Source: Ruminococcus albus 7 = DSM 20455 (GTDB lineage Bacteria; Bacillota; Clostridia; Oscillospirales; Ruminococcaceae). From it: 32,000 bases of DNA. Under the pieces are notes generated by a model. That model was given only the letters and a program-made list of their open reading frames with translations. It was not told where the DNA came from and did no database searches. A program made the position numbers and the translations under genes. Positions 2,227 to 32,000 of this stretch are shown here, piece after piece (the first letter of the stretch is position 1; the number at the start of each line of letters is the position of its first letter). The DNA is taken from contig NC_014824.1 in assembly GCF_000179635.2 (NCBI RefSeq), forward strand, positions 330,001 to 362,000. Reading direction: 5' to 3'.

Positions 2227-2560
2227 TTTTGTGGTACAATCCTTTCGGTGGTTTAATGGTTTTTGCAATTATATTATACCACAAAAAGAAGAGCTGGCAC
2301 CTTTCATTTCAGGTCTGTGCCAGGCTCTTTTTCTTTGTTGGGGCTGCAACAGCCCCTTGACTTTTATTCATTTGAAAACAATTACATCCAAAACTATCAA
2401 TTAGGTGATATGATATCATACAACTTTAATGATGAACTATCATTGAATCAAACACTTTATGTACAGAAACAGGGCGCAATGGTAATGGATATATCGAATC
2501 TTGTAATGTTACGTGCCAGTATGGCATACGCACTGCTATATAAGTTTGAAAGGATTAATC

Positions 2561-3754
2561 ATGAACCAAAGAATTATGAACGAAAAAGATTTCAGCATTC
2601 CTCAAATTGTAGAAAGCAATGATGAATATGTAGAAAAAGTTATTGCTATACTGAATAATTACAAAACAGTGATTCACGGAAGCATTAGTACAAAATATGA
2701 AACGGCTCTTTTGAAAGATGTTGATTTTGTATGCAATACTCTATTAGAAGCATTAATTCTTGGAACTAAAAGTAAATTTCCAGAAATGGATGAAAAAATG
2801 AAAAATCTGATAGGTTACTATTTAGTGGATGAATTTTGGGTTTCAGAATTAGATCATAACTATGCTTTCCGTGGTGTAACATATTTTGAAAAATTACATA
2901 GTCAGGGTTTTGTGCAACAATATGAAAAGCTGAAAGAAAATGACTTAACATTTTTTCGTGCAGTTTGCCAAAAAGAGACTCCGGATATAAACCGAATGCT
3001 CAATTGTCCTTTTTCATCTATATCTTATGCATCTGCCGGAAGATTTTCTAATCAAGGTGCGTCATGTATGTATTTAGGGACAACATCTTATGTTTGTGCT
3101 AAGGAACTGCGATTTGATGAGAAAACATACAGTCACTTACACGTATCCGCTATCAAATTTAACGAGCTTGGCAAGAAATTAAAAATCCTGAATCTTGCAT
3201 CATCAAAATATTTTAACATTTATGATAGAAGAGATAGTAATAATATAATTCTCAAAGAAATCTGGTTATCTCATCTAAAACTCTATCCCATCATTATTGC
3301 AACTTCTTTTGTTGTAGAAAATCACGCCAATGGTGAGATCAAATACGAGTATTTACTGTCACAGAGTTTGATGCGCACATTGAAAGAGAACGGAATAAAC
3401 GGAATAGCTTATGCTTCTAAAAGAAATACTAATAGCGACTTTGCAATTCCGCACAATATAAACTTGGCGATTTTAGTAGATGATGTCAGTGAAGAAAATG
3501 ATTACGGAACGCTAAAAAACTATTTATCAATTACAGAACCCCAAAAATTTACACAGTCGTTTGTTGACAAGATATCGGAATCAAATGATAATATCGAGCA
3601 TCATAGCTATGTCAACAGTAATTTCAGTGATCCTCATGACTTCAATTCAAAAATCCATTTGCAGGGTGATAACGAACTATATTCTAGTTCGCCATACAGC
3701 ATATTTGACGATTATCTTGTAAACCAACCATTCAAAGACGGAAACCAATTATAA
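2561..3754 (+). CDS. RES-domain-like protein with a long N-terminal extension (putative NAD-targeting toxin/effector), no cognate antitoxin seen
   Basis: ATG 2561 follows a GAAAGGA RBS at 2548-2554, so the track's GTG at 2513 is probably an over-extension. The central region TFFRAV...ASAGRFSNQGASCMYLGTTSYVCAKEL...GINGIAYASKRNT....NINLAIL fits the R / E / S signature and spacing of RES domains (GRfn..G...lYl.....a..E ... gi.y.S.......N.aif). The ~150 aa N-terminal to it and the ~100-aa C-terminal tail are unrecognised. Confidence 0.5.
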   Translation: MNQRIMNEKDFSIPQIVESNDEYVEKVIAILNNYKTVIHGSISTKYETALLKDVDFVCNTLLEALILGTKSKFPEMDEKMKNLIGYYLVDEFWVSELDHNYAFRGVTYFEKLHSQGFVQQYEKLKENDLTFFRAVCQKETPDINRMLNCPFSSISYASAGRFSNQGASCMYLGTTSYVCAKELRFDEKTYSHLHVSAIKFNELGKKLKILNLASSKYFNIYDRRDSNNIILKEIWLSHLKLYPIIIATSFVVENHANGEIKYEYLLSQSLMRTLKENGINGIAYASKRNTNSDFAIPHNINLAILVDDVSEENDYGTLKNYLSITEPQKFTQSFVDKISESNDNIEHHSYVNSNFSDPHDFNSKIHLQGDNELYSSSPYSIFDDYLVNQPFKDGNQL

Positions 3755-3761
3755 AATCACA

Positions 3762-3793
3762 GCGCCTACGCACTAACTCAAGTGAATAGGCGC
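3762..3793 (+). terminator. Possible terminator hairpin after the RES-like gene
   Basis: GCGCCTA-cg-CACT-aactca-AGTG-aa-TAGGCGC gives 7+4 bp with a symmetric internal loop, 8 nt after the stop. The downstream T-tract is weak (aagattt). Confidence 0.35.
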
Positions 3794-3812
3794 AAGATTT
3801 CCTCTCCGTGAC

Positions 3813-3936
3813 ATAATTGTTTCTCCCTCCTGACAATTATCTTGACGGCATAAACTCTTTAATAGTTATCTACGTTTGCTTTTGTGGCTACAAACAACAA
3901 GGTTAAGTCTTGTCCGCTCCCAATAATTGTAATTAT
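3813..3936. promoter_or_regulatory. Three copies of the octamer ATAATTGT / ACAATTAT upstream of the operon promoter (candidate operator sites)
   Basis: ATAATTGT at 3813-3820 and its exact reverse complement ACAATTAT at 3833-3840 form an inverted repeat. ATAATTGT recurs at 3923-3930 inside the palindromic ATAATTgtAATTAT (3923-3936). All copies lie within ~170 bp upstream of the -35 at 3980. Confidence 0.3.
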
Positions 3937-3979
3937 CGACGAACTTTAAACAAAGTGTTTGGAAAATGTGCATATTTCC

Positions 3980-12094: not shown

Positions 12095-12337
12095 TGGAAA
12101 TGAATTAGTTTATGAAGGGTCTCATGTTTCTATTTATAGATGAAGAGAAGAATACGGATAATACCATAAGCGGTTTATACAATTAAAGAAAAAAATGGTT
12201 TTGTGATTTATGAAGCGTTAGCAGATATGTGTACCAATAATTTGAGACCAAACTCCGTGGAATGAATTTGAGGAAAACTATTATTTTAGTCTCAACGCGA
12301 ATTCCACACGAATATAAGATGCTAACAGGTGATTTTG

Positions 12338-13645
12338 ATGAAAAAAAATAATATAGATATATCGGCTAAATTGTTATTACTAATACTGTCATCCGCGGTT
12401 ATGTATATTTTTCCGAATGTAAATGAATTACCATTAGTAGGTGGATATATTGTATTTCTAAGTATTATTTTCATAATTAAATCGTATAAGAATATTATGT
12501 CTTTTATTGTTGCATTATTTTTATTTTGGTTTAATTACAGTATAATCTTTGCAAATTACTTTCTTGATATGCATTCATTTTATCTTAGAGATTCGTACTC
12601 AGCAGTATCAGTAATAGGATTAAGAGTACTATTGATATTTAATTTGATTTTATGTTTGTTCACAAAAAATAGTGACAGCAAAAACTATGAAATAGCATGG
12701 AAATATAATAAGCCCGTTAGTGAGATAATCGCATGGGGCTATTTATTTCTTTTGACATTCATCCTGATCTTTGGATTTTCCCGACCAGCTAAGGAAGGTG
12801 GTCGAGGGTCACCTTCTACGATATACGAGTACTCTATAGTACTATTTATCGTTGGTTATTATTTCTTTCATTCAAACAAGTATTATATTAATTTAAGTTC
12901 TTTTCTCTTGATTTTATATGCTTTACAGAACTTGTATTACGGAGGTAGAATTACTGCCCTGCAAGAGTTGACAATTTTTTTTATTCTTTTTGTTCACAAG
13001 AAATCTAAGACTAATTTAAAAACAATGATTCCAGTTGTAATATTTTCGTTTATCATATTTACTGGAGTTGGACTTTTTAGAGCTAATTTTCGACTGTCAA
13101 CCTCAACTATAAATGATATTTTTGAATCGAGCAATAATAAAGCATTAACTCTTGATACAGCATACTCTGCGTATTACACTTCCTTAACATTTATTAAAAC
13201 CGAATCAATACTATCTTTACCAGAAAGATTAAGGATATTTATAAATTGGATATGTTCACAGTTGGTAGGAGGAAGTTTAATCAGAGAATCGAATGTTGCT
13301 CAAATAACAAGACGTTATTACATACATTATTATGGCGGTGTGCTTCCATTTTTCGGACATTTCTTTATGGGATACATAGGGACAATTTTGATAAGTCTTG
13401 TAGTTGCAAAATACATAAATGACTTGAAGTCTTTTTACAAAAAATCAGGTTTATCAAAATGTATTTTACTTTACTTTGTTGTCACAACTCCAAGATGGTT
13501 TTTGTATTCTCCGTCTCCATTATTTAGAGGAGCATTTCTAGTTTTTGTTGTGTATTATATTACTGAACAGTTCAATGCTTTTTTTATGAAACGACAATAT
13601 ATGAGAATGAATGAACGCGACAAATTACAATATGCCAAAGCTTAA
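12338..13645 (+). CDS. wzy: Polytopic membrane protein, probable repeat-unit polymerase (Wzy-like)
   Basis: ~435 aa, very AT-rich and very hydrophobic, with about ten or more predicted TM stretches by eye and one larger loop. It is the only candidate polymerase in a locus that also has Wzx. There is no recognisable motif, as is usual for Wzy. ATG 12338 is preferred over GTG 12329. Confidence 0.55.
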   Translation: MKKNNIDISAKLLLLILSSAVMYIFPNVNELPLVGGYIVFLSIIFIIKSYKNIMSFIVALFLFWFNYSIIFANYFLDMHSFYLRDSYSAVSVIGLRVLLIFNLILCLFTKNSDSKNYEIAWKYNKPVSEIIAWGYLFLLTFILIFGFSRPAKEGGRGSPSTIYEYSIVLFIVGYYFFHSNKYYINLSSFLLILYALQNLYYGGRITALQELTIFFILFVHKKSKTNLKTMIPVVIFSFIIFTGVGLFRANFRLSTSTINDIFESSNNKALTLDTAYSAYYTSLTFIKTESILSLPERLRIFINWICSQLVGGSLIRESNVAQITRRYYIHYYGGVLPFFGHFFMGYIGTILISLVVAKYINDLKSFYKKSGLSKCILLYFVVTTPRWFLYSPSPLFRGAFLVFVVYYITEQFNAFFMKRQYMRMNERDKLQYAKA

Positions 13646-13779
13646 TCGAATAAAATGCTTTATAACTTAATATTAAACCCATTTTTACAGAAATATGCAA
13701 TATGTTGCAATCATTAAAAAAGTCTCATTAGTTTACATTTTTTTGATACTTCCCCAAAACATAGCTAAGGAGAGTTAGA

Positions 13780-14619
13780 GTGAAACAATTTTATAAAGAT
13801 TTTATCGGCAAAACAATAAATAGTCAAGAACAGTTGAAAATACAACTAGACATTCTGAAATATGTTGCAAGTTTTTGTGAAAAGAATGGGCTTCGATATT
13901 TTTTGGCTGATGGAACGCTACTTGGAGCTGTCAGGCATCATGGCTATATTCCTTGGGATGATGATATTGATATACGGATGCCAAGACCAGATTATGAAAA
14001 AATGTGTGAATTATTCAATTCAAAAGATAATGATGGAACATATCATTTAATTCAGCCTTCTGATGACGAAGCACAGCATTATTTTGTCAAGATTATCGAT
14101 ACTCGAACTATCAAGATTGAGCCCTATTTGAACTATAAATTTGGTCTGATTGGGATTGACATTGATGTCTTTCCAATTGATGGAGCACCATCAAATCCGA
14201 ATGAGTATGATAAATATCAAAAAACAATTAGAGGATATAATAAAACGTATATGCTGAAAAAGAAGATTTTTTTTCGCAGGATGTTGACAATCGGAAAAGA
14301 TTTCGTTAAAAATCGCTTCAAAGCTCATTTTTGTCCATTTATGAGTTTTAAGGCAGTTGCACGCAAAGTAAAACAATTATCAAATCAATATGATTTTGAA
14401 AAATCGGAATATGTGTGTCATATTGGTATCGGGGATAGATACCGATTTCCAAGATCAGCATATAGTGATTACAAAATGATGCAGTTTGAAGATACACAGT
14501 TTAGAATTCCTTGTGGTTATGATGAGATATTAACTGCTCATTATGGAGATTATATGAAATTGCCTCCTGTTGAAAAACAGATTACGCATCATGTCAATAA
14601 TGCTTATTGGAAAAAATAA
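13780..14619 (+). CDS. licD: LicD-family phosphotransferase, paralogue 1
   Basis: [28 protein letters not shown] is the LicD nucleotidyltransferase-fold motif (LLGAvRh.[10 protein letters not shown]). The C-terminal YGDYM.LPP motif is also present. GTG start follows an AAGGAGAG RBS. Confidence 0.85.
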
Positions 14620-14632
14620 TGAGGTGAATAGA

Positions 14633-15706
14633 ATGTTAAACTTTACAGTAGGTCCAGTTATGTGCAGTGATGAAGTATGTGCGGTTGGCGGTGAGCAGGT
14701 TCCCTATTTCAGAACGCCGGAATTTTCAGAATTGATGCTGGAAAATGAAAAGCTTATGCTGAAGTTTTCCAAAGCGCCCGCAGGATCGAGAGTAGCTTTT
14801 ATGACCAATTCTTCTACTGGATCGATGGAAGCGACAGTTATGAACTGTTTTACAGCATCGGATAAGGTGCTGGTTATCAACGGCGGTAGCTTTGGTCAGC
14901 GATTTGTTGAACTGTGCGAGATTCATGATGTTCCACACGATATTCTGAAGCTGAATCATGGACAGAAGCTTACCAAAGAAAGACTATATGAATACGACAA
15001 CAAGGACTATACTGGATTGCTTGTCAATATTGATGAAACTTCTACCGGTGTCCTTTATGATTCGGAAATGATTGGTGAATTCTGTAAAAAGAATGATATC
15101 TTCTACGTTTGCGACTGTGTTTCGGCATTCCTAGCTGATACGTTTGATATGGCACACTGCGGTGCGGATGTAATGATAACCGGTTCGCAGAAGGTTCTTG
15201 CTTGCCCTCCTGGCGTTTCCATGATTGTTCTTGCTCCCAGGGCTGCGGAGCGTGTGACAAACGCAAATGTGAAGTCAATGTACTTCAATCTTGCAGATGT
15301 TCTCAAAAATATGGAACGTGGACAGACACCGTTCACTCCTGCTGTTGGTATACTTCGTCAGATAAACACACGACTGAAGGAAATTGAGGCAGCAGGTGGG
15401 GCAGATGCTGAAATTGCCCGTGTTGCAGCCCAGGCACAAGATTTCCGTGAGAAGATCAAAGAATTGCCATTTGAATTTGTATCTGAGTCTCCAGCTAATG
15501 GTGTTACATCGGTTCATCCGTTGAATGCAGATGCCTATGAGATTTTCATGGAACTTAAAGACCATTATGGAATCTGGATTTGTCCGAACGGCGGAGAAAT
15601 GAAAAGTACTATATTCCGTGTTGGTCACATTGGTTACTTGAATCACGAAGACAATACTACGCTTATAAACGCTTTGAAAGATATGCAAAGAAAAGGTAAA
15701 CTGTGA
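14633..15706 (+). CDS. Class-V (AGXT/PhnW/SerC-like) PLP-dependent aminotransferase
   Basis: [10 protein letters not shown]-terminus and a [15 protein letters not shown]-lysine motif, ~357 aa. ATG 14633 follows a GAGGTG RBS and removes the 50-nt overlap implied by the track start at 14570. It is not a DegT/EryC1-type sugar aminotransferase. Confidence 0.8.
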
Positions 15707-15734
15707 GAAAAACGTTTTTAATGGAGATGATATA

Positions 15735-17009
15735 GTGATCAAAGTAATTACATACGGAACATATGATATGCTCCATTATGGACATATTCGTCTACTTGAA
15801 AGAGCCAAAGCACTTGGTGATTATCTTATAGTTGGTGTAACATCTGATGACTATGATAAAACAAGAGGAAAAATTAATCTTCAGCAATCCTTGATGGAAC
15901 GTGTTGAAGCAGTCAAAGCGATAGGTATTGCTGATGAAATAATAGTTGAAGAATACGAAGGTCAAAAAATAGATGATATCCGCCGTTATCAGGTCGATAT
16001 TTTTACTGTTGGTTCTGATTGGGAAGGCAAGTTTGACTATCTTAATGAATACTGCAAGGTCGTATATCTTCCCCGTACTGAGGGCGTATCAAGCTCTGAA
16101 ATACGAGCTGAAAAGAGAAAGCTTAAAATTGGAACCATCGGCGGAAAAGGACTGTGTTCAAAATTCAAAAGAGAAATGCAGTTCGTGAACGGTGTTGAGT
16201 ATCAGGAATGTGGTAATGATTTTAAAAACGTTGATGCGGTATATATTGCAACACATCCCGAAAGACACTATGCCGATGTTAAGAGAGCGCTGGAACTTGG
16301 GAAGCACGTCATCTGCGAGTCACCTATTGCACTCAAAGTTGGTGAATGCAGAGAGCTTTTGAATCTGGCTCATGAAAAAGGTCTTATTTTGACTGATGCG
16401 ATTAAAACTGCATATTCTACTGCTTATTCAAGGTTGCTTGTTGTTGCAAAAAGCGGTAGGATAGGTGATATTATATCCGTGGATTCAGTATGTACAAGCT
16501 TGAGTGATAATGTATATGATGAAAATGTCGATTTGTCACGTAAACAAAATAGTATATGCGCATGGGGACCAACAGCTATGCTTCCAATTTTTCAGTTGCT
16601 TGGGACGGAGTATAGATCAAGTAATATTATTACTCAAATTATTGACAGTAATATAAACTTTGATGGATATACTAAAATTGATTTCGTTTATGATAAGGCT
16701 GTTGCATCTGCAAGAGTAGCAAAAGCAGCAAAGGCCGAAGGTGAACTCGTTATTACTGGTACCAAGGGATACATTTATGTTCCTGCACCTTGGTGGAAAA
16801 CTGATTATTTTGAGATTCGATTTGAAAATCCAGCTGATAATAAAAGGTATTTTTATCAGTTAGATGGAGAGGGAATTAGGTATGAAATAGTTGCGTTTGC
16901 AAAATCGGTAGAAAGTGGACGAGATAATTTCTATATCAATAATTCTATATCGTCAGAAATCTCTAAGACAATAGAAAAGTACAATTCTAATGATTACATT
17001 GAAATATGA
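15735..17009 (+). CDS. Bifunctional fusion: TagD-type glycerol-3-phosphate cytidylyltransferase (aa ~1-130) + Gfo/Idh/MocA-type oxidoreductase (aa ~130-424)
   Basis: The N-terminus VITYGTYDMLHYGHIRLLERAKALGDYLIVGVTSD ... FTVGSDWEGKFDYLNEYCKVVYLPRTEGVSSSEIR is almost colinear with B. subtilis TagD as I remember it. The rest has a Rossmann start (KIGTIGGKG), AVYIATHPERHYADVKRALELGKHVICESPIAL (the family's ..CEKP.. motif reading ESP here) and a dimerisation-type C-domain. GTG start follows GGAG. Confidence 0.85.
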   Translation: MIKVITYGTYDMLHYGHIRLLERAKALGDYLIVGVTSDDYDKTRGKINLQQSLMERVEAVKAIGIADEIIVEEYEGQKIDDIRRYQVDIFTVGSDWEGKFDYLNEYCKVVYLPRTEGVSSSEIRAEKRKLKIGTIGGKGLCSKFKREMQFVNGVEYQECGNDFKNVDAVYIATHPERHYADVKRALELGKHVICESPIALKVGECRELLNLAHEKGLILTDAIKTAYSTAYSRLLVVAKSGRIGDIISVDSVCTSLSDNVYDENVDLSRKQNSICAWGPTAMLPIFQLLGTEYRSSNIITQIIDSNINFDGYTKIDFVYDKAVASARVAKAAKAEGELVITGTKGYIYVPAPWWKTDYFEIRFENPADNKRYFYQLDGEGIRYEIVAFAKSVESGRDNFYINNSISSEISKTIEKYNSNDYIEI

Positions 17010-17021
17010 AAAGGAATAACA

Positions 17022-17870
17022 ATGAATAATGCAAAAGAATTAAGTCCGGAACAGTTTAGAAAAATGCAGCTGACAGAACTCGATATGCTTGTTGAGTTTG
17101 ACAGGGTGTGCCAGAAGAATAAGATCAGATATGTTTTGTTTGGCGGAAGTCTTCTTGGTGCGGTGCGTCATAAAGGATATATTCCATGGGACGATGATGC
17201 GGATATTGGAATGCTGCGTGAAGATTACAATAAATTTAAACGTCATATAAACGAATTGAATCCGGATATTTGTTATTTCCAGGATCATGATACAGACCCA
17301 GAGTATAGATGGGGATATGGGAAGTTGCGTAGAACAGGAACGAAATATGTTCGTGTTGGTCAGGAACATCTGAAATGTAAGACGGGTATATTTGTTGATG
17401 TATTTCCTATGGATGATATTCCTTTGTCAGTATTTGGACAGATACTACAGGATTTGCATTGCTTTTGTCTAAGAAAGATTTTATGGTCCGAAGTTGCTAA
17501 ATACAACACAAAAGGCTTTTGGAAGATATGGTTCACTCTTTTATCGAAGATTCCTGTTTCATTTGCATTTGATCAGTATAAGATTTATGAGAAAAAGAGC
17601 AGAAATCGCACTCCCAACAGAGTGAGATGTCTTTCTTTCCCGGCTACAGGAACCTTGTATAAGAAAAACCCTATCAACGAGCGTTATGGAATGCCAAAAT
17701 CATGGTTTACAGAAAGAAAGAAATATTTCTTTGAGGGAAAGTATTTTTTCAGTTCTCGTGACTTTGATACGGTGTTAAAGTATATTTACGGAGATTATAT
17801 GGAAATTCCAGATGAAAAAGGCAGAGAACAGCATTCGCCGTTTTCGGAAATAAAGTTTCCTGAAGAATAA
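17022..17870 (+). CDS. licD: LicD-family phosphotransferase, paralogue 2
   Basis: [30 protein letters not shown] plus a C-terminal YGDYMEIPD. Confidence 0.85.
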   Translation: MNNAKELSPEQFRKMQLTELDMLVEFDRVCQKNKIRYVLFGGSLLGAVRHKGYIPWDDDADIGMLREDYNKFKRHINELNPDICYFQDHDTDPEYRWGYGKLRRTGTKYVRVGQEHLKCKTGIFVDVFPMDDIPLSVFGQILQDLHCFCLRKILWSEVAKYNTKGFWKIWFTLLSKIPVSFAFDQYKIYEKKSRNRTPNRVRCLSFPATGTLYKKNPINERYGMPKSWFTERKKYFFEGKYFFSSRDFDTVLKYIYGDYMEIPDEKGREQHSPFSEIKFPEE

Positions 17871-17888
17871 ACAAGAAGGAGAAATAGA

Positions 17889-18686
17889 ATGATAGTAAAA
17901 TGCAAGCAGTCAGACATTGATCTGATCTTATCTTATATAGGCAATGATTATCCAAAATGCCTATATCTCTTTCTTAATGTAAATAAATATGGTTTGGAAC
18001 ACGGCAGAATTGAAGCGTTTATCCAATACTGCAAGGGTGATATCAGTTCTGTTATGTTGCAGTATTACTCTTGTTTACACATCTATTCAAAGGATAATTA
18101 TTTTGATAATGAAGAACTGACCGACTTCATTTTCTCTAAGAAAGAACTGACTATGCTTTATTGTGAAGCTTCAACCGCTGATAAGATTGCTTCAAACCTT
18201 TCCAAAAAGACAGACAAACAATTTTCTGTTACAAAGGGGTGGGTAGCTCAAATAAATGCTCTTAAAACAACTCCTAATGGTCTGGCAGAAAAGGCTGAGA
18301 GTAAAGATTTTGAACAGATTGTCAAAATGATCTATGATGATGAGGATATCGGGAGATCGTATAAATATGATGAACTGGCAAAACAGCTTGAAGAAAGAAA
18401 TAAAGAAGGGTATTCACGGAATTTAGTTATCAAGGATAATGAATTAGTAATAGCACACGCTTGTACAAATGCAGAATTTGAAAATGTGTCTGTTGTAGCA
18501 GAATTACTTGTCAGGAAAGAATATCGCAGGCAGGGTCATGCTTCAGAAATATGGGGAGATATCTGTAAAGAGTTGCTGGAAGAAGGGAAAGAGGTCTATT
18601 CATTTTATTATTCGTTTGAATCTCGTGCTTTACATAAGAAACTTGGTTTTGAAGAGGTTTGTGAGTGGTCTAAAATAGTATTCTAA
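17889..18686 (+). CDS. GNAT-family N-acetyltransferase (C-terminal GNAT fold; N-terminal ~150 aa unassigned)
   Basis: VAELLVRKEYRRQGHASEIWGDICKELLEEG ... LHKKLGFEEV matches the acetyl-CoA-binding motif A (R/Q-x-x-G-x-A/G) and the terminal beta-strands of GNATs. Confidence 0.65.
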   Translation: MIVKCKQSDIDLILSYIGNDYPKCLYLFLNVNKYGLEHGRIEAFIQYCKGDISSVMLQYYSCLHIYSKDNYFDNEELTDFIFSKKELTMLYCEASTADKIASNLSKKTDKQFSVTKGWVAQINALKTTPNGLAEKAESKDFEQIVKMIYDDEDIGRSYKYDELAKQLEERNKEGYSRNLVIKDNELVIAHACTNAEFENVSVVAELLVRKEYRRQGHASEIWGDICKELLEEGKEVYSFYYSFESRALHKKLGFEEVCEWSKIVF

Positions 18687-18704
18687 CGTTAATAGGTGGA
18701 TAAT

Positions 18705-19550
18705 ATGAATGAAGAAAACAAAAAAATATGGGCAGTTGAGCTTGATCTCCTTGAAAAACTAAAGGATATTTGTAATAAGTACGGTTTGAAATACTGTGCA
18801 AGTTCCGGAACTTTACTTGGTGCAGTACGTCATAAGGGTTTTATTCCCTGGGATGATGATATTGATGTTTTTCTTCCGTGGGCGGATTACAAAAAGTTAT
18901 TGGAAGTAGCACCAAAAGAATGTTCCTATCCGTTCTTCTTTCAGAGTTTTCTGAATGAAAAGGACGGTGAAACAAGTGCTAGTAGACTTAGAAGAAGTGA
19001 TACTACTGGTTTTACAAAATGGGAGTATGAAAATGTCGGTGCTGACTATGACAAAGGTATTTTTATTGACATTTTTCCGCTGTTCTATGTTCCTGAATCT
19101 AAGGCTGATCAGGCTGCTCAAAAGGAAACCATTATGTTTTTCTGGAAATGCATTAGAGGACATGACGCATTAGTCCAAATTAACAGAGGAAAAACACCAA
19201 ACCCAGACTATGAAAAGTACATAATGTATTATAAATGCGTAAGTGAATCAATGACAATCACGGATATCAAATGGGCCTATCTAAACGCTTGTGCAATTGA
19301 TGATAAACCTACATCGATAGTAGGTGCAACTTCTTCTCGTGTGCATTTAGATTCTCTTATGTGGGAAACAGCACTCTATGACGAGTATATTGATTTACCA
19401 TTTGAAAATACGACAATCAAAGTGCCAAAATACTACGAGGCTGTTTTGGATAAACAATATGGCGATTGGAGAACACCCATTGAAAATGGATCTCGGCATG
19501 AAATGATTGTTATAGATACTGAAACACCTTGGAGAAAGTATATGAAGTAG
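18705..19550 (+). CDS. licD: LicD-family phosphotransferase, paralogue 3
   Basis: [26 protein letters not shown] plus a C-terminal YGDWRTP. ATG 18705 follows AGGTGG. The track start GTG 18696 lies inside the RBS. Confidence 0.85.
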   Translation: MNEENKKIWAVELDLLEKLKDICNKYGLKYCASSGTLLGAVRHKGFIPWDDDIDVFLPWADYKKLLEVAPKECSYPFFFQSFLNEKDGETSASRLRRSDTTGFTKWEYENVGADYDKGIFIDIFPLFYVPESKADQAAQKETIMFFWKCIRGHDALVQINRGKTPNPDYEKYIMYYKCVSESMTITDIKWAYLNACAIDDKPTSIVGATSSRVHLDSLMWETALYDEYIDLPFENTTIKVPKYYEAVLDKQYGDWRTPIENGSRHEMIVIDTETPWRKYMK

Positions 19551-23392: not shown

Positions 23393-25132
23393 ATGGGAAA
23401 GTATTCTGTAGAAAAAAGTATTCAGATTCTTATTGCAATATTAAAGGCAAATAACATAAGAAAGGTTATTGTCAGTCCCGGCACAACAAATATCAGCTTG
23501 GTTGTAAGTATGGTGAACGACGGAAGCTTTGAAATGTATTCTGCTGTAGATGAGCGAGGTGCAGCATATATTGCCTGCGGTCTTGCATCGGAAAGCGGAG
23601 AACCCGTTGTTATTACTTGCACAGGTTCAACTGCATCCAGAAATTACTACCCAGGACTGACCGAAGCGTTTTATCGCAAATTACCTATCCTTGCAATTAC
23701 TGCTTCTCAGGATTTTGTTCGTAACGGAAATCTAAGTCCCCAATTCATTGATAGAACTCAGCAGCCCAAAGACAGCGTTTTGCTCAGTGTCCAGATTCCA
23801 ATTGTCAGAAATTCAGCTGATGAATATGATGCTACAATTAAGATCAACAGAGCTGTAACGGAGCTTTTTCACCATGGCGGCGGACCTGTACATATTAATC
23901 TAGCTTCGAGCTATACTAATGATTTTTCTGTTGAAGAATTACCAAGTGTTCATATAATTAATCGACATACATATAGTGACCAAAAACAATATCCCAAAAT
24001 TGAGCTGGGTAAAAAAGTTGGTATAATTATTGGAAATCATAAAACATTCAGTGTGCAGTTAACAGAAGCAATCGACAATTTCTGTGCAATATACGATGCA
24101 GTGGTGATCGTTGATCACAGCAGTCACTATTGGGGAAATTACAGAGTTCTTCCTACAATTCTTACTTGCCAGGGAGCTCATAACTCTAAATTGTTTGATT
24201 TTGAATTATTGATCCATATTGGTGAGGCACACGGTGATTATTATACTGAACCATATATGAAGCGTGCGAAAGAAGTATGGCGCATAAGCGAAGATGGCGA
24301 GATAAGGGATACATTTGGGGTATTAACCAATTTGTTTGAAATGACGGAATTACACTTCTTTGATACATATAACAAAAACTTTCAAGAAGTGAATCCTAAG
24401 CATGATCAAAGAGATCTGTTTTATAAAGAAATAAATGATATATATGATCAAATTCCAGAGCTGCCTTTTTCAAATATATGGATTGCTCAGCAAATTATTC
24501 CCCAATTTCCTTCGGATGCTTGTTTGGAATTAGGAGTTAGCAATACCATGAGATCATGGACATTTTTTGATTTCAAATCGGAAGTCTATGTTTTGGCTAA
24601 CACAGGATGTCGTGGAATCGATGGAGCTATTCCTACATTGGTCGGAATGTCACTTGCAGATCCTGAAAAAATACATTTTGCGGTCATGGGTGATTTGACG
24701 TTCTTTTATAGCTTTAATGTTCTTGGAAACCGACATATTGGTAAGAATTTAAGAATTTTGTTGGTCAATAATGGATGTGGCGAAGAATTCAATATATACT
24801 CAAATAGGGCATATAAAATATATGATGGCGATCACGAAAAAATTAATGAGTTTATCGCAGCCGGAAATCAAACCGGAACCAGATCAAAACAATTAGTGAA
24901 ACATTTTGCAGAAGATATTGGAATGAAATATATGACTGCATCAAATAAAGAAGAATTCACGCAATTATTGCCGGAATTTTTAAATACTGAGTCTGAAAGC
25001 GACTCCATTATTTTTGAAGTCTTTACAGATGTTGATGAAGAAAATACCGCATTAAAACTCATAAGAAATATAAGAATTGATACATCATCAGCTATAAAAG
25101 GGAAAATCAAAAGTTTATTGGGAAGAAAATAA
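23393..25132 (+). CDS. Thiamine-diphosphate enzyme of the MenD (SEPHCHC synthase) type, in a non-menaquinone context
   Basis: Three-domain-size ThDP enzyme (579 aa). The N-terminal Pyr domain VIVSPGTTNISLV...AVDERGAAYIACGLA...PVVITCTGSTASRNYYPGLTEAFYRKLPILAITAS parallels MenD (..SPGSRS.PL....DER...F.ALG......PV.L.CTSGTA.ANL.PA..EA....PL..LTAD) rather than acetolactate synthase (HEQ). The PP-domain motif MGDLTFFYSFNVLG......LRILLVNNGCGEEF parallels MenD GDLS..YD.N.L.......L.I...NN.GG.IF. Confidence 0.7.
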   Translation: MGKYSVEKSIQILIAILKANNIRKVIVSPGTTNISLVVSMVNDGSFEMYSAVDERGAAYIACGLASESGEPVVITCTGSTASRNYYPGLTEAFYRKLPILAITASQDFVRNGNLSPQFIDRTQQPKDSVLLSVQIPIVRNSADEYDATIKINRAVTELFHHGGGPVHINLASSYTNDFSVEELPSVHIINRHTYSDQKQYPKIELGKKVGIIIGNHKTFSVQLTEAIDNFCAIYDAVVIVDHSSHYWGNYRVLPTILTCQGAHNSKLFDFELLIHIGEAHGDYYTEPYMKRAKEVWRISEDGEIRDTFGVLTNLFEMTELHFFDTYNKNFQEVNPKHDQRDLFYKEINDIYDQIPELPFSNIWIAQQIIPQFPSDACLELGVSNTMRSWTFFDFKSEVYVLANTGCRGIDGAIPTLVGMSLADPEKIHFAVMGDLTFFYSFNVLGNRHIGKNLRILLVNNGCGEEFNIYSNRAYKIYDGDHEKINEFIAAGNQTGTRSKQLVKHFAEDIGMKYMTASNKEEFTQLLPEFLNTESESDSIIFEVFTDVDEENTALKLIRNIRIDTSSAIKGKIKSLLGRK

Positions 25133-25153
25133 GATTATTTAAAGGGAATTCGA

Positions 25154-26209
25154 ATGAAAGTATTATTACTAGGCGGAACCGGAGCAATGGGAACACATGT
25201 CATTGACTTCCTTAAGAAAAAAGATAAAATTGAAATAGTTGTTTCTTCACGTTCTGCAAGAAAAGCTAATGATAAAGTTACATATGTCCAAGGTAATGCT
25301 AAAGACATTACATTCCTAAAAGAATTGTGCAAACAGCATTGGGATGCTATTCTAGATTTTATGGTTTACACAACATCAGAATTGCAAAGTCGAATTGACT
25401 TACTATTATCTTCTACAGTTCAGTATTTATTTTTCAGTTCAGCAAGAGTATATGCTGATTCATCAGACCTAATAACAGAGGACAGCCCCAGATTATTAGA
25501 TGTTTGTACAGATCAAACATATTTATCTACAGATGAATATGCACTTGCAAAAGCACGAGAAGAAAATATTCTCTTTTCTCATAAGAATAAAAACTGGACA
25601 ATTATCAGACCAAGCTTAACTTATGGCGAGAATCGCTTACAGTTGGGTGTTTATGAAAAAGAAAATTGGCTGTATCGAGCGTTACATGGTAGATCTATTG
25701 TTTTTTCAAAAGATTTGATGGAAAGGTACTATACTCTTTCTTATGGAAAAGATGTAGCTGAAGGAATTGCAGCACTTGTAGGCAATAAAGACGCGGTAGG
25801 AGAGGTCTTTCATATTGTTCAGGATCAGTCATTTCAGTGGAAAAACATATTAGAGTTATATGTAGCTGAGATTGAAAAAGTTACCGGAAAGAAACCTAAT
25901 GTTGTATTAACTGAGAAGTCAACAAATTTAAAACTGGAATATAAAAAGTATCAAGTTATATATGGCAGATATTTCAACAGGCATTTTGATAATTCTAAAA
26001 TCAAAAAGTTTGTTGATACCTCAAATTGGTTGCAACCTGATGATGGCTTGGTACAATGCCTTGATACGTTTTTAAAAGAGCCTGTATATCAGAATATTGA
26101 TTGGAATGTAGAAGTATTGCTTGATAAGGCAGCACATGAATTTACTCCAATAAAAGATATAAAAGGCAAAAGAGCAAAACTAAGCTATCTAAAGCATAGA
26201 TTTATATGA
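25154..26209 (+). CDS. NAD(P)-dependent SDR (extended epimerase/dehydratase/reductase family)
   Basis: VLLLGGTGAMGTHV glycine-rich motif, FFSSARVY and a YALAK catalytic Y-x3-K. It starts 21 nt after the MenD-like gene. Confidence 0.75.
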   Translation: MKVLLLGGTGAMGTHVIDFLKKKDKIEIVVSSRSARKANDKVTYVQGNAKDITFLKELCKQHWDAILDFMVYTTSELQSRIDLLLSSTVQYLFFSSARVYADSSDLITEDSPRLLDVCTDQTYLSTDEYALAKAREENILFSHKNKNWTIIRPSLTYGENRLQLGVYEKENWLYRALHGRSIVFSKDLMERYYTLSYGKDVAEGIAALVGNKDAVGEVFHIVQDQSFQWKNILELYVAEIEKVTGKKPNVVLTEKSTNLKLEYKKYQVIYGRYFNRHFDNSKIKKFVDTSNWLQPDDGLVQCLDTFLKEPVYQNIDWNVEVLLDKAAHEFTPIKDIKGKRAKLSYLKHRFI

Positions 26210-26258
26210 TTGTTTACACTTTGTATTTATATAAACGATTGACACAGGAGGATAACCC

Positions 26259-27263
26259 GTGTATGCTGCAACAGAGCAGAACAGAACAGAACAGAACAGA
26301 ACAGAACAGAGTAATACTATTCAATTATTCAGAGGACTTTCAATAATAGCTGTTGTATTTATACACAACACGCCTTCCGGAATAACACAGGTTTTTGTAA
26401 GACCATTTCTTAACTTTTCTGTAGGTTTATTCTTGTTTCTTAGCGGATTTCTAACTGATCCCAATAAAATTTCAATAAAGAAAAGACTTAAAAAAGTCTT
26501 AATACCCTATGTTATATGGACTGCTGTTTATGTGATTTTATATAATTATCAATCACCAGGCTCCATTCCCTTGCTATTCTTTAAAAACTTGATTACGGCA
26601 AATTCAGCTGCGATGATGTATTATATTGCAGTATACTGTCAGTTAACTTTGTTAGTTCCAATAATCAACAAGTTTGCAAATTCAAAATATAAATACTGGT
26701 TCCTTTTGATTTCTCCAATTGAAATAATAGTAATGCGAACACTCCCTATACTGTTTAGATTTCAATTTCCTAATATTATAACATCAATTATGCATATCTC
26801 GTTTGTGGGATGGTTTGAATATTACTATCTTGGATATCTTATTGGTAATAAGAAATTAGAGTTGTCAAGTATAAAAATACGAAAGATGTATTTTCTACTA
26901 GCTTTTTCGATACTATTTCAGTATGGAGAAGGTTTCCTTTTTTACTCATTGGAAAGTGATAAATGTGGAACTCAATTGAAGCTCAGCAGCTTGGCTACAG
27001 GAATTGTTATTTGCTTGATTAGCTGTTGCTTTATTACTAATGGAAAGAAATATAACTGTACCGCTATAAAGAATCTTGGCGATAAATCATTTGGTATTTA
27101 TTTATCACATATGGCTATTATGCGTTTGTTAGGATTGATCCCCTTTTATTCGGAATATGTTGTATTTCCAATAAATGCTGGTATTATCATCATGTTTTCA
27201 TATTTATTTGCTATTATTAGTAGTAGCATTCTTGCAAAGAATAATTATATTTGGAATGTGTAA
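26259..27263 (+). CDS. Acyltransferase-3 family membrane O-acyltransferase (polysaccharide O-acetyltransferase)
   Basis: LFRGLSIIAVVFIHN is followed by about ten hydrophobic segments and a late FGIYLSH motif, typical of acyltransferase_3 (OatA/WecH-like) proteins. GTG 26259 lies 7 nt after GGAGG. The 5' end contains the (CAGAA)n tract. Confidence 0.8.
   Translation: MYAATEQNRTEQNRTEQSNTIQLFRGLSIIAVVFIHNTPSGITQVFVRPFLNFSVGLFLFLSGFLTDPNKISIKKRLKKVLIPYVIWTAVYVILYNYQSPGSIPLLFFKNLITANSAAMMYYIAVYCQLTLLVPIINKFANSKYKYWFLLISPIEIIVMRTLPILFRFQFPNIITSIMHISFVGWFEYYYLGYLIGNKKLELSSIKIRKMYFLLAFSILFQYGEGFLFYSLESDKCGTQLKLSSLATGIVICLISCCFITNGKKYNCTAIKNLGDKSFGIYLSHMAIMRLLGLIPFYSEYVVFPINAGIIIMFSYLFAIISSSILAKNNYIWNV
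26271..26310 (+). repeat. Pentanucleotide microsatellite: (CAGAA)x6+CAGA perfect (26277-26310), 8 units with one mismatch from 26271
   Basis: Read directly: ACAGA GCAGA ACAGA ACAGA ACAGA ACAGA ACAGA ACAGA. It lies within codons 5-18 of the acyltransferase ORF. Confidence 0.95.
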
Positions 27264-27504: not shown

Positions 27505-28173
27505 ATGTACAAAACATCTGATCTATATGATCTTGAACATACCTTAGCTAAGGACTACCTGAGCCAGTTCACCTACCCCTGGGAAGTTCTCAGCGGCATA
27601 AAGGATTTTATCATTGAACTCGGCAAGACCCTCGACCCCAACGAATATGAACAGCGTGAGGAAGGCGTGTGGGTACACAAGACTGCAAAGGTTTTCCCGA
27701 CTGCGTATCTCGGTGCACCTTGCATAATCGGACCGAATACCGAAGTGCGTCACTGTGCGTTCATTCGTGGTTCTGCACTGGTGGGTGCTGACTGCGTTGT
27801 AGGCAACAGCGTTGAACTAAAAAACGTTATACTTTTTGACCACGTTCAGACTCCGCACTACAATTATGTTGGAGACAGCATTCTCGGTTATTTCAGCCAC
27901 ATGGGCGCTGGCTCTATCACATCGAACGTGAAGTCCGATAAAAAGAATGTCATTGTCCGAGATGGCAGCGAGAAGGTTGAGACCGGTATCAAGAAGTTTG
28001 GTGCGATGATAGGCGACTATGTCGAGGTTGGCTGTAATGCCGTCTGCAATCCGGGTACTGTCATCGGTAGGAACAGCAATGTTTATCCGACTTCTTGCGT
28101 ACGTGGTGTTGTGCCTGCTGATTCGATTTGGAAGGATAATGGAGAGATCATACATAAGGAAGATAGATGCTAA
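27505..28173 (+). CDS. Left-handed beta-helix (hexapeptide) transferase resembling the GlmU C-terminal acetyltransferase domain
   Basis: Successive hexapeptide turns (GAPCIIGPNTEVRHCAFIRGSALVGADCVVGNSVELKNVILFD). HYNYVGDSILGYFSHMGAGSITSNVKSDKKNVIV parallels GlmU HL.Y.GD..IG..VN.GAGTIT.NYDG..K..T.IG. AAGGAGAG RBS. GC is visibly higher than in the operon to its left. Confidence 0.6.
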   Translation: MYKTSDLYDLEHTLAKDYLSQFTYPWEVLSGIKDFIIELGKTLDPNEYEQREEGVWVHKTAKVFPTAYLGAPCIIGPNTEVRHCAFIRGSALVGADCVVGNSVELKNVILFDHVQTPHYNYVGDSILGYFSHMGAGSITSNVKSDKKNVIVRDGSEKVETGIKKFGAMIGDYVEVGCNAVCNPGTVIGRNSNVYPTSCVRGVVPADSIWKDNGEIIHKEDRC

Positions 28174-29343: not shown

Positions 29344-32000
29344 ATGGCAATGCACCTATATCCCCACAATCTAATAGCATACACATCCGCAGTTCATATG
29401 CTTTCCGAGCGTGGCAAAGCCGCTGTGATTCACCCCACAGGAACAGGCAAATCTTTCATAGGTTTCAAGCTCTGCGAGGACAACCCCAATAAAACTATTT
29501 GCTGGCTCTCTCCGTCAAGATACATCTATCAAACACAGCTTGAAAACCTTGCTGAGACTTCCGATGGCTATCAGCCAGAGAATGTTAAGTTCTATACCTA
29601 TGCAAAGCTGATGAATGTCAGTGAGGAAGAAATCGCTGAGATACAGCCCGACTACATAATACTTGACGAATTTCATAGGTGTGGCGCAGAGCTTTGGGGC
29701 GCAGGTGTTGATGCTGTTCTAAGAGCATATCCCGATGTTCCTGTGCTTGGTCTGTCTGCAACTGCTATCCGCTATCTCGATAATCAGCGTGATATGACCG
29801 ATGAACTGTTTGACGGAAATGTTGCAAGTGAAATGACGCTTGGTGAAGCTATCGTGCGTGGTATCCTCAATCCTCCGAAGTACATTCTGTCCGTGTTTTC
29901 TATCCAAAAGGACTTGGATAAATACGAACAGCGAGTTCATAATGCCCGATACAAGAAAATGCGTGATGAAGCTGAGGTATACCTTGAAGCACTTCGCCGT
30001 GCTTTGGATCATGCCGAAAAGCTTGATGTGATGTTCGATAAGCACATGGAGGACAGAACGGGTAAGTATATCGTTTTTTGTGCCAACCGTGAACACATGG
30101 ACGATATGATCGGCAAGGCGAAGGAATGGTTTGCAAAGGTCGATAAAAGACCTCACATCTACAAAGTATATGCAAGCAATCCTGAAACAAGCAAGGCATT
30201 TGCAGATTTTAAGTCAGACAGATCAGAACGTCTTAAACTGCTGTACTGCATTGATATGCTCAACGAGGGCGTTCATGTGGAGGATATTTCTGGCGTTATT
30301 CTGCTGCGCCCTACGGTCTCACCTATCATATATAAACAGCAGATCGGGCGGGCGCTTTCGGCAAGCAAGTCGAATATGCCCGTCATATTCGATATAGTCA
30401 ATAACATTGAAAACCTGTACAGCATTGATACCGTCAAGGATGAAATGCAGACTGCGATACAGTATTTCTACAAACATGATGGTTCGGGAGTGGTTGTCAA
30501 CGAAAACTTCGAGCTTATTGACAAGGTTGCCGATTGCAAGAGCCTGTTTGAAGCGTTGGAGGGTACACTTTCTGCTTCATGGGACATAATGTACGAAAAG
30601 GCTAAGGAGTATTATGAGCAGTACGGTGATCTTGAAATACCGAAGGATTATTACACCGAGGACGGTTACAGTCTCGGTATTTGGATAATTACCCAAAGGG
30701 GAAACTATCGCGGCACAACATTAAATTCCGTTCCGCTGACACAGGTTCAGATAGACAAGCTGACAGCTATCGGAATGCGCTGGCAGAGCATCAACGAGCT
30801 GTCATGGGAACGGTATTTTGAAGCTGCGGAGCAGTATTACAATACTCACGGCGATCTTCTTCCTACGGCCGCTTTTGTTGATGAAAACGGTATAGATCTA
30901 GGACGCTGGCTGCAAAATCAGCGGACAGCCCGAAAGAACGGCGTGACAAAATGGGGACTGACCGAGGAACGGATAGCGCGTCTTGACGGTATCGGAATGG
31001 TCTGGGACGTTTTTGATTATCAGTGGGAGGAGAATTTTTCAGCTGCTGTGCGTTATCACAGGCAGCACGGCGATCTTGAGGTGCCGCAGAAATATGTTGA
31101 CAGCGAAGGCTTTTATCTTGGCAGATGGCTTTCAAAACTGCGTTTGAACCGCAAAAACGGTACAGAAACTTTGACCGAAGAACAGAAAGCAAGGCTCGAT
31201 GCTCTCGGAATGTGCTGGGAGGACAGGTTCGAAAGGCGTTGGAACAATAATTTTCGTGAGCTTTGCAAATACTATGATGAACATAAAACGCTGACAGTTC
31301 CGGCGCAGTTCAGAACCGAAAGCGGTGCGAATCTATACGCTTGGATAAAAACTCAGCGTGTTAAATTCAGTGAGGGCAGGCTTTCTGATGAACAGTTTAA
31401 AAAGCTGAATAGCATAGGCTTCGATTTTACGATCACCGACATTTGGGAAGAAAATTTTGCTTTTGCAAAAAAGTATTTCGAGGAACACGGCGATCTTAAT
31501 ATTCCTGCCACGGATAACAAAGGCATCACAGTAAGAAAATGGCTTCTTCGGCAGAAAAAATATGCAGATGCTCCGGATTCAGCAAGGCTGTCGCATGAGC
31601 AGATCGAAAAGCTGCGTTCAATAGGTCTTTTTGATGAGCTTTCCCATACCGACAGGCTTTGGTTTTCACGTTACGGAATGGCTAAGGCTTTTTATGCGGA
31701 GAACGGTCATTTGAATGTCCCAAAGGATTGTATTATTGACGGTTTCAATCTCGGAACGTGGGTGCAAACTCAAAAGCAAAAGAACAAAAAAGGTGTGCTT
31801 TCACAGGACAAAATTGACCTGCTAAACAAACTGGGAATGAATTGGGAAAGCCTTGCCGAAATAGATAATTCTCGTCTGTACAAAACAGGTTTTGCTCATC
31901 TTGAAAAATATATCGCAGAAAATGGTTTGGGCAACGTAAGAGCGAATACTGTCTGCGAGGACGGCTATGCCCTCGGAAACTGGTTGACGAATTGCAGAAG
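29344..32000 (+). CDS. Superfamily-2 DExH helicase (ResIII-type core) fused to a tandem array of helicase-associated (HA) domains; 3'-partial, continues beyond the window
   Basis: This ORF is not in the supplied track because no stop codon occurs before position 32000. I translated the frame by hand from ATG 29344 (AGGAGG RBS at 29330-29335) and found no stops over 885 codons. The motifs are HPTGTGKS (Walker A), ILDEFHRCG (DExH), LGLSATA (III) and YKQQIGRALS (VI). From 30580 there are repeated W...F.....Y....G.L.VP......G..LG.W...QR......L....I..L..IGM.W units. Confidence 0.85.
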   Translation, partial: MAMHLYPHNLIAYTSAVHMLSERGKAAVIHPTGTGKSFIGFKLCEDNPNKTICWLSPSRYIYQTQLENLAETSDGYQPENVKFYTYAKLMNVSEEEIAEIQPDYIILDEFHRCGAELWGAGVDAVLRAYPDVPVLGLSATAIRYLDNQRDMTDELFDGNVASEMTLGEAIVRGILNPPKYILSVFSIQKDLDKYEQRVHNARYKKMRDEAEVYLEALRRALDHAEKLDVMFDKHMEDRTGKYIVFCANREHMDDMIGKAKEWFAKVDKRPHIYKVYASNPETSKAFADFKSDRSERLKLLYCIDMLNEGVHVEDISGVILLRPTVSPIIYKQQIGRALSASKSNMPVIFDIVNNIENLYSIDTVKDEMQTAIQYFYKHDGSGVVVNENFELIDKVADCKSLFEALEGTLSASWDIMYEKAKEYYEQYGDLEIPKDYYTEDGYSLGIWIITQRGNYRGTTLNSVPLTQVQIDKLTAIGMRWQSINELSWERYFEAAEQYYNTHGDLLPTAAFVDENGIDLGRWLQNQRTARKNGVTKWGLTEERIARLDGIGMVWDVFDYQWEENFSAAVRYHRQHGDLEVPQKYVDSEGFYLGRWLSKLRLNRKNGTETLTEEQKARLDALGMCWEDRFERRWNNNFRELCKYYDEHKTLTVPAQFRTESGANLYAWIKTQRVKFSEGRLSDEQFKKLNSIGFDFTITDIWEENFAFAKKYFEEHGDLNIPATDNKGITVRKWLLRQKKYADAPDSARLSHEQIEKLRSIGLFDELSHTDRLWFSRYGMAKAFYAENGHLNVPKDCIIDGFNLGTWVQTQKQKNKKGVLSQDKIDLLNKLGMNWESLAEIDNSRLYKTGFAHLEKYIAENGLGNVRANTVCEDGYALGNWLTNCR
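30580..32000 (+). repeat. Protein-level tandem repeat array: at least 7 HA-domain units of ~68-75 aa
   Basis: The unit-initial Trp codons are at 30580, 30805, 31024, 31240, 31444 and 31660. A seventh unit (Tyr in place of Trp) starts near 31879. Spacing is 204-225 nt. The units are diverged at the DNA level, so this is not a recent duplication. Confidence 0.8.

Follow-up and report, generated by a model that had tools for sequence, protein, structure and literature searches.

A (CAGAA)n pentanucleotide tract occupies part of the first codons of a gene for a membrane O-acyltransferase of the AT3 family in Ruminococcus albus 7 (DSM 20455), within the window analysed here, a 32,000-nucleotide (nt) stretch of DNA (NC_014824.1, positions 330,001 to 362,000 of the forward strand; all coordinates below are window positions). 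We consider it likely that this tract is a reversible slipped-strand translational switch of the AT3 gene with three states. In the proposed mechanism, slipped-strand mispairing during replication would add or remove 5-nt units in a hypermutable tract that separates the start codons from the catalytic core, and each change would shift the frame of the enzyme body relative to two overlapping starts (GTGTATG) with a common ribosome-binding site. With 5 or 8 pure units the body would be in frame with an ancestral ATG at 26263 and probably fully expressed. With 6 units (the reference) or 9, it would be in the frame of a secondary GTG at 26259, where expression is probably reduced because ribosomes choosing the ATG would make only a 27-residue peptide. 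With 7 or 4 units the body frame would be startless, resulting in a null state. Cells of one clone would then differ, heritably and reversibly, in whether their polysaccharide is O-acylated (probably O-acetylated), with a plausible benefit in varied phage receptors or surface and adhesion properties. The parts of this scheme that we infer are slippage in R. albus 7 itself, which of the two starts is used and how strongly, the acyl group with its target glycan, and the selective agent. The features on which the argument rests are as follows.

26206..26208, + strand: ATG overlapping the epimerase stop (ATGA), in the frame shared with ATG 26263
26247..26251, + strand: Shine-Dalgarno sequence GGAGG, 7 nt 5' of GTG 26259 and 11 nt 5' of ATG 26263
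26259..27263, + strand: AT3-only membrane O-acyltransferase gene (Pfam PF01757, PHROG 3333), 334 amino acids (aa) from GTG
26259..26261, + strand: GTG start, in frame with the acyltransferase body at 6 pure units; start of the deposited 334-aa ADU24053.1
26263..26265, + strand: ATG start, probably ancestral; out of frame at the present length, opening a 27-aa peptide
26270..26310, + strand: pentanucleotide tract, (AACAG)/(CAGAA), of 8.2 units and a single mismatch; pure part 26277-26310
26331..26366, + strand: R/K-X10-H motif in transmembrane helix 1, RGLSIIAVVFIH (R25-X10-H36), codons 25-36
26344..26346, + strand: stop ending the frame of ATG 26263 at the present tract length (open reading frame 26206-26346)
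26433..26435, + strand: TTG (codon 59); by frame recomputation, no canonical start in the body frame comes earlier 3' of the tract

The tract and the reading frames around it

Direct reading of the sequence gave a pure 34-nt run, (CAGAA)6+CAGA, at 26277-26310 with 0 mismatches. Tandem Repeats Finder extended the array to 26270-26310 (period 5, 8.2 copies, 94% matches, score 75) and reported no other array with more than ~3 copies in the window. The CAGAA tract was also the only microsatellite returned from the 32 kb by a detector of our own, set to periods of 2-7, 3 or more units and 14 nt or more, which found none in 125 kb of related loci. An earlier reading of this DNA (the original prediction) had described a perfect run within about 8 units bearing one mismatch, unique in the window; both methods reproduced the run, and both detectors its uniqueness. 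Judging roughly by base composition, chance alone would produce a perfect period-5 run of 34 nt ~1e-11 times in 32 kb. The tract is thus far beyond chance and must be regarded as the product or record of past slippage. Moreover, the six units are identical in DNA, with no synonymous variation, and this purity points to recent slippage rather than to selection on the peptide.

Selection on the peptide has nevertheless to be weighed. In the annotated frame the tract forms codons 4-18 and is translated at the present length as TEQNRTEQNRTEQS, a hydrophilic TEQNR repeat preceding helix 1, and many homologue leaders contain TEQS (encoded by ACAGAACAGAG-like DNA). Both observations would suit a (TEQNR)n cytoplasmic leader kept for a role in topology, stability or interaction. 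However, among 120 homologues the leader before the conserved IQxLRG core differs widely in length and sequence, with a few calls beginning at or inside the core, and no EQNRT peptide repeat was found in any of the 120. It had been proposed that homologues conserving this peptide through synonymous changes would speak against a switch; the homologues show the opposite, the nearest of them having no repeat at all. Since the units are nucleotide-identical, since the other in-frame allele class would read the N-terminal DNA differently, and since out-of-frame alleles are common in homologues (see below), a peptide function for the repeat is very improbable and was rejected. TEQS-coding DNA is instead a plausible seed for slippage.

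Reading frames were recomputed for tract changes of -6 to +7 units. At changes of 0 mod 3, GTG 26259 is in frame and the product begins MYAATEQNRTEQNRTEQSNT...; at the present length this frame is 334 aa long. At -1 or +2 units, ATG 26263 is in frame (MLQQSRTEQNRTEQSNT...) with no stop in between. At +1 or -2 units the open stretch of the body frame reaches no further upstream than 26243 and contains no ATG, GTG or TTG there, the only near candidate being an ATA at 26252. Initiation at TTG-59, the next canonical start, would remove helix 1 with R25 and H36 and most of the FLFLSG motif (residues 58-63), keeping LSG only. The R/K-X10-H motif begins seven residues past the tract, and R25 and H36 are invariant in an alignment of 25 sequences (A2). 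Their equivalents in Salmonella OafA, R14 and H25, are essential, with mutants retaining <1% activity (PMC7448272). With no in-frame start before codon 59 and an essential motif from codon 25, the out-of-frame alleles should therefore be null. The recomputation agreed with the original prediction on every coordinate and reading of the ribosome-binding site, the two starts and the stop, on the unit changes that bring the ATG into frame, and on a third, startless length class that would be OFF.

The frame of ATG 26206 and ATG 26263 is open from 26200 through the tract, and it is speculative that, in the ATG-ON state, translational coupling from ATG 26206 could yield a 350-aa product with an N-terminal extension. 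The best promoter-like sequence in the region, TTGACA-17-TATGCT (10/12) at 26239-26267, overlaps the ribosome-binding site and both starts. A TTGACA also stands just 5' of the starts in the nearest homologous locus and in clusters 3, 5 and 7 of the homologues described below (GGGTTGACAAAATG). Promoter-like sites in the region were no more numerous than in shuffled sequence, and the match may therefore be coincidence. A switch acting through promoter spacing was rejected; the tract is downstream of the sole good promoter-like pair, and the number of sites is that of the shuffles.

The nearest homologue (P0001, locus L010, from European Nucleotide Archive metagenome assemblies) is 78% identical to the R. 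albus protein and belongs to a locus with the same gene order: thiamine pyrophosphate (TPP) enzyme, epimerase, AT3. In the DNA alignment it carries GGAGGA and the following CGTGTATGCT as in R. albus 7, and the tract is absent. Relative to this locus the R. albus 7 tract appears as a 32-nt insertion seeded on CAGAGCAG. The L010 gene opens with ATG (MLRQSSINIQILRG), resembling the MLQQSR... of the R. albus ATG frame, and its GTG is present but out of frame, as spacer. Because the tractless relative uses ATG, ATG 26263 is probably the ancestral start and the GTG a secondary one recruited by the tract. In the reference allele the ATG is out of frame and the full protein can be read from GTG only, and the GTG annotation thus conceals that the ancestral start is out of frame in the reference genome. 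The two-start switch as originally predicted is supported by the frames, by the lack of a rescue start ahead of the catalytic motif and by the homologues; what requires revision is the standing of the GTG, a secondary and probably weak start. The L010 locus also differs in its number of AT3 genes: it has two in tandem, for proteins of 350 aa and 322 aa (its positions 1928-3969), and R. albus 7 has one.

The same alignment raises the question of whether the reference allele is expressed at all. If ATG were the sole functional start and the GTG call an artefact, the strain 7 copy would be frameshifted, either reversibly or as a decaying gene. The start of the nearest homologue and its out-of-frame GTG favour this explanation, as does the window's own ATG frame, which ends after 27 codons; GTG is also, as a rule, the weaker initiator of the two codons, and here they overlap and compete. 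On the other side, GTG 26259 is at a good spacing from GGAGG, the 334-aa frame runs unbroken for 1 kb and keeps every invariant residue of the family, showing no sign of decay, and a homologue with two starts in two frames has full-length calls from both in nature. We regard an OFF reference as unlikely, though worth taking seriously, and it would alter the state of the reference only, not the switch mechanism. The reference allele is probably ON, weakly, via the secondary start, and could be OFF if the GTG is unused.

Tract length in homologues and in R. albus 7

Homologues from uncultured gut Clostridia display natural length polymorphism with ON and OFF alleles. The leaders TDRQTDRQT and QTDRQ resembled translated (CAGA)n, and the DNA confirmed this. 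Cluster 7 encodes a protein ~50% identical to that of R. albus and was recovered as 21 loci from independent metagenomes, with flanks and a 975-nt body identical across all 21 apart from one single-nucleotide polymorphism in one locus. As the loci were retrieved by exact protein identity, the lack of non-synonymous differences within a group is partly by construction; the identity between groups, and that at synonymous sites, owes nothing to the retrieval. On this constant background the (ACAG)n tract has 4, 5, 6, 8 or 14 units, and 3 are implied by the protein P0067. Unit number, which the original prediction had singled out for comparison across related genomes, therefore ranges from 3 to 14 on identical bodies.

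The frame logic of cluster 7 matches that proposed for R. albus. Two overlapping ATGs in different frames (ATGATATG) precede the tract. When n is 0 mod 3 the gene is read from ATG TAC (MYGSKSF...); when n is 1 mod 3 it is read from the overlapping ATG ATA (MICTVQNLL...); and when n is 2 mod 3 gene calling gives a truncated product of 284 aa that begins at an internal Met. The OFF product was found on 15 contigs, and the ON forms on 10, 4 and 2. Four units, (CAGA)4, are implied by the full-length proteins of cluster 3; its frameshifted alleles, called as truncated proteins of 270 aa, have (CAGA)3. A further homologue, P0052, has (ACAG)7. Identity among these CAGA lineages is 57-80%, and between them and the R. 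albus protein it is 46-50%. Given this distance and the tractless nearest relative of R. albus, the R. albus expansion is independent.

Two further observations concern cluster 7. One locus (L020) has an interrupted tract, ACAGACAGAAAGACAG(ACAG)4, of 8 units with one G-to-A change, an interruption of a kind expected to stabilise a microsatellite. In five others (L018, L023, L025, L028 and L030) genes for a head-closure protein, a terminase nuclease fragment and an integrase lie 3' of the AT3 gene, and these phage-derived neighbours recall phage-borne O-antigen acetyltransferases for receptor modification.

For R. albus 7 itself, evidence of length heterogeneity came from assembly graphs. Logan assemblies use k=31, drop k-mers seen once and contain each 31-mer once, and their Minia step includes a SPAdes-like removal of low-coverage connections (PMC12424806). 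In a simulated k=31 graph the 34-nt pure tract assembled through. An upstream unitig end at 26306 with a downstream start at 26281 arose only with an allele of at least 7 units, alone or mixed with 6. A mixture of 5 and 6 units gave an upstream end at 26305 and a downstream start at 26282, and the 26282 start appeared with or without longer alleles; wherever a 5-unit allele was present, the simulated mixtures all included 6 units. A start at 26282 implies a k-mer with one flanking base on each side.

Breaks at these positions were found in public runs. One contig (L008; 5 samples, 4 similar places) and a second (L009) stop at 26306; a downstream contig from the run of L009 (L071; 9 samples) starts at 26281; and for another (L070), from a neighbouring run within the L008 series, the start is 26282. 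Apart from these ends, the contigs match the window at 100% identity. For the downstream contig we had predicted the partial protein RTEQNRTEQSNT..., and a look-up then found it. The breaks occur in two independent run series, in at least 10 samples and in about half of the runs carrying the locus. The graph topology thus points to alleles of at least 7 units in no fewer than 10 runs, and to one of 5 units in a single run. Length heterogeneity in this isolate, which the original prediction had proposed to seek in deep or long reads, may thus exist: the graph breaks fit 5 and at least 7 units, but every allele read through has 6. Contigs of the older SRR0599xx runs were rejected as evidence of variation; they differ from the window by homopolymer indels only, none of them in the tract. 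More generally, break points in fixed-k assemblies can reveal tract-length heterogeneity without reads.

The points that weigh against a switch in R. albus 7 are these. In exact look-ups, ~nine contigs pass through the tract and all have 6 units. A graph break needs only two observations of a variant k-mer, so stutter in the polymerase chain reaction or in reverse transcription could be its source, and the breaks at 26306 and 26281 could also come from pure-repeat k-mers of other DNA in the sample. A literature search for the Sequence Read Archive run numbers gave no match, and the runs may be DNA or RNA, from pure culture or co-culture. Ten predicted variant proteins (-6 to +5 units, truncated calls) were absent from a collection of 15 billion proteins. 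Joint Genome Institute (JGI) metagenome scans gave no match either to (CAGAA)3.6 with a back-translated IQxxRG core or to the conserved flank from the ribosome-binding site to CAGAGCAG. The tract is lineage-specific and not a family property: a census of 36 species-representative genomes, R. albus 7 not among them, yielded 34 loci that were scanned, none with a leader microsatellite, and a family-wide tract was rejected accordingly. Initiation at GTG 26259 is a prediction from its position behind the Shine-Dalgarno sequence. Finally, 6-8 units is at the low end of the tract lengths that have high switching rates in classical systems.

Several of these points would be accommodated by an accidental microsatellite: a single expansion in a dispensable leader, stable at 6 units, in a gene read from GTG, with breaks of technical origin. 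The deposited genome and all read-through contigs have 6 units, no alternative allele was found in public assemblies or JGI metagenomes, and Logan retains k-mers seen twice, such that stutter in a high-depth library could make the breaks. Such an origin, however, has to account for break positions that fall exactly where they are predicted for alleles of +1 and -1 unit, in both run series; very rare variant k-mers would also be expected to be cleaned away with the low-coverage connections. Furthermore, a pure 34-nt period-5 tract exists only through slippage at the site, and homologous tracts of similar or shorter length are polymorphic in nature. An accident of this kind is in our view rather improbable, and the slipped-strand switch is the reading that we retain.

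Contig ends were also noted further downstream, inside a GlmU-like hexapeptide gene (27505-28173). Every Logan contig reaching this point ends at 28137 (one at 28142), in at least 7 different runs and whatever happens at the tract, and no repeat within the window explains these ends. Probably the downstream sequence occurs a second time elsewhere in the genome, or the contigs meet a structural junction here.

The acyltransferase and its polysaccharide locus

The 334-aa product is identical to ADU24053.1 / WP_013483602.1, 'acyltransferase [Ruminococcus albus]', of strain 7. It matches Pfam Acyl_transf_3 (PF01757) with E = 1.9e-25 and 90 bits against a gathering cut-off of 31, the match spanning residues 21-324 and profile positions 4-322 of 326, and the phage family phrog_3333 'O-acetyltransferase' with E = 2.3e-14. 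Beyond the R/K-X10-H motif, FLFLSG at residues 58-63 resembles the FFXISG type, with F58, F60, S62 and G63 invariant, and the basic motif of loop 2-3 is KRLK at 75-78, where an RXXR type is expected. Pfam gives PF01757 alone, and at 334 aa the protein is too short for a fused SGNH domain. A crude hydropathy scan with a strict threshold detected 6-7 strongly hydrophobic 19-mers, compared with the ~ten helices of the AT3 family, and no solved structure in the PDB is related by sequence. The acyl group transferred is probably acetyl, and from gene context the target would be the surface polysaccharide of the locus.

A run of ~20 genes on one strand, ending with the AT3 gene, encodes the machinery for a decorated surface glycopolymer. 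The run includes a priming sugar transferase, glycosyltransferases of families GT1, GT2 and GT4, sugar-nucleotide enzymes, a Wzx-type flippase and a pyruvyl transferase, together with three LicD proteins, a PhnW-like aminotransferase, a GNAT protein, a MenD/acetolactate-synthase-like TPP enzyme and an epimerase. The gene directly upstream is

25154..26209, + strand: gene of the NAD-dependent epimerase/dehydratase family, directly upstream of the AT3 gene

and the 49-nt gap between the two contains no terminator-like site. The epimerase and AT3 genes are therefore probably co-transcribed.

Positions 23393-26209 encode a 579-aa MenD/acetolactate-synthase-like TPP enzyme and a 351-aa short-chain dehydrogenase/epimerase, which precede AT3. 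As this order of TPP enzyme, epimerase and AT3 also occurs in the 78%-identical locus (L010 1-1903), the three look like a module; the pairing of a TPP enzyme with a reductase may parallel the YerE/YerF branched-chain sugar pathway. Further upstream, 12329-19550 carries an unusual decoration set, with three LicD phosphotransferases, the PhnW-like class V aminotransferase and the GNAT, as well as a fusion of a glycerol-3-phosphate cytidylyltransferase with a Gfo/Idh/MocA oxidoreductase and a protein of 438 aa that matched no family. The product of the locus may carry an amino-alcohol phosphate substituent.

Outside the polysaccharide genes, the left end of the window holds genes for a DUF4314 protein (28-690) and a 413-aa RES-domain protein (2513-3754), which are consistent with a plasmid or mobile setting. 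The replicon may be the megaplasmid pRUMAL01; megablast of window positions 25900-26700 against a plasmid collection gave no match. Towards the right end, at 30805-31497, a 54-nt unit ending CACGGCGATCTT occurs three times in direct orientation, at spacings of 219 and 420 nt, the copies having diverged to 67-70% identity. They probably represent a repeated protein domain in a gene cut off by the window's right edge.

Known contingency loci and the reach of the proposed switch

The R. albus tract would add a member to the known class of contingency loci rather than a new mechanism. It has the sequence hallmarks of that class, a 5-nt unit between the start and an essential motif with no downstream start to rescue translation. 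The closest known system is oafA of Haemophilus influenzae, an AT3 gene switched by (GCAA)n (PMC10505976, PMC9558356), whose repeat tract is found in 61 of 105 H. influenzae genomes (PMC10505976). Both genes encode a PF01757 O-acyltransferase of a surface glycan (presumed for R. albus), both have an in-frame microsatellite whose unit is not a multiple of three, and in both the tract is confined to some strains or lineages. In oafA, however, the repeat is the tetranucleotide GCAA, the host is a Gram-negative human pathogen, the target is heptose III of the lipooligosaccharide, and switching and its phenotype have been shown experimentally. The R. albus gene has a pentanucleotide and two starts, belongs to a Gram-positive rumen commensal, shares only the family fold with oafA, and is known from sequence alone.

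The original prediction had invoked lic1A, opa and wciZ as precedents; these comparisons stand, and oafA, the closest, had gone unnamed. In H. influenzae lic1A, a 5' (CAAT)n tract combined with starts in different frames leads to strong, weak or no expression. Its switching rests on tetranucleotide repeats (PMC10505976). The multi-start design is common to lic1A, to R. albus 7 (GTGTATG with (CAGAA)n) and to cluster 7 (ATGATATG with (ACAG)n); lic1A differs in encoding a choline kinase, in its tetranucleotide unit and in that graded expression has been measured there, whereas in R. albus it is deduced from the frames. Neisseria opa (CTCTT)n is a pentanucleotide coding repeat near the 5' end that sets the frame of a surface component. 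There the tract has many units and is part of the signal-peptide region of an outer-membrane adhesin encoded by a multigene family, unlike the single enzyme gene and 6-8 units of R. albus. In Streptococcus pneumoniae, slippage in the (TA)n of wciZ (serotypes 15B/15C), a Gram-positive capsule O-acetyltransferase gene, gives acetylated or non-acetylated capsule; this is a dinucleotide inside the gene body of a pathogen, with no dual start. Clusters 3, 5 and 7 resemble R. albus in belonging to the same AT3 subfamily (46-50% identity) and in having the tract between the starts and the IQxLRG core. The motifs are related (ACAG / AACAG, followed by ACAGAACAGAA or CAGAGTAAT), and cluster 7 also has two starts. 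They differ from R. albus in a unit of 4 rather than 5 nt, in their independent expansion and, for cluster 7, in lying beside phage-derived genes.

Repeat-driven phase variation is textbook biology of mucosal pathogens, and the known switches of gut commensals are mostly DNA inversions. To our knowledge, repeat-based phase variation is hardly documented in gut and rumen Clostridia. Whether its restriction to pathogens is real or a database bias was left as an open question by a 2025 review (PMC11868660). We tentatively propose, as something that could well be right but that we hold slightly less likely than its opposite, that AT3 microsatellite switches are recurrent and unrecognised in strictly anaerobic gut and rumen Clostridia. 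Independent (CAGA)n and (CAGAA)n expansions would have arisen from a TEQS leader, and paired starts would give high, low and off states; with about half of the sampled copies off, this would fit strong fluctuating selection, for example by phage on acylated glycans. If true, multi-state repeat-based phase variation would be no speciality of pathogens and could be read directly from metagenomes.

The present locus is a concrete case in a cellulolytic rumen Firmicute, probably megaplasmid-borne, and its homologues show that the design is polymorphic in natural gut populations. If the switch is confirmed, cultures of R. albus would be mixtures of cells whose surface polysaccharide is or is not acylated, which could affect fibre adhesion, phage sensitivity and the reproducibility of stocks between laboratories.

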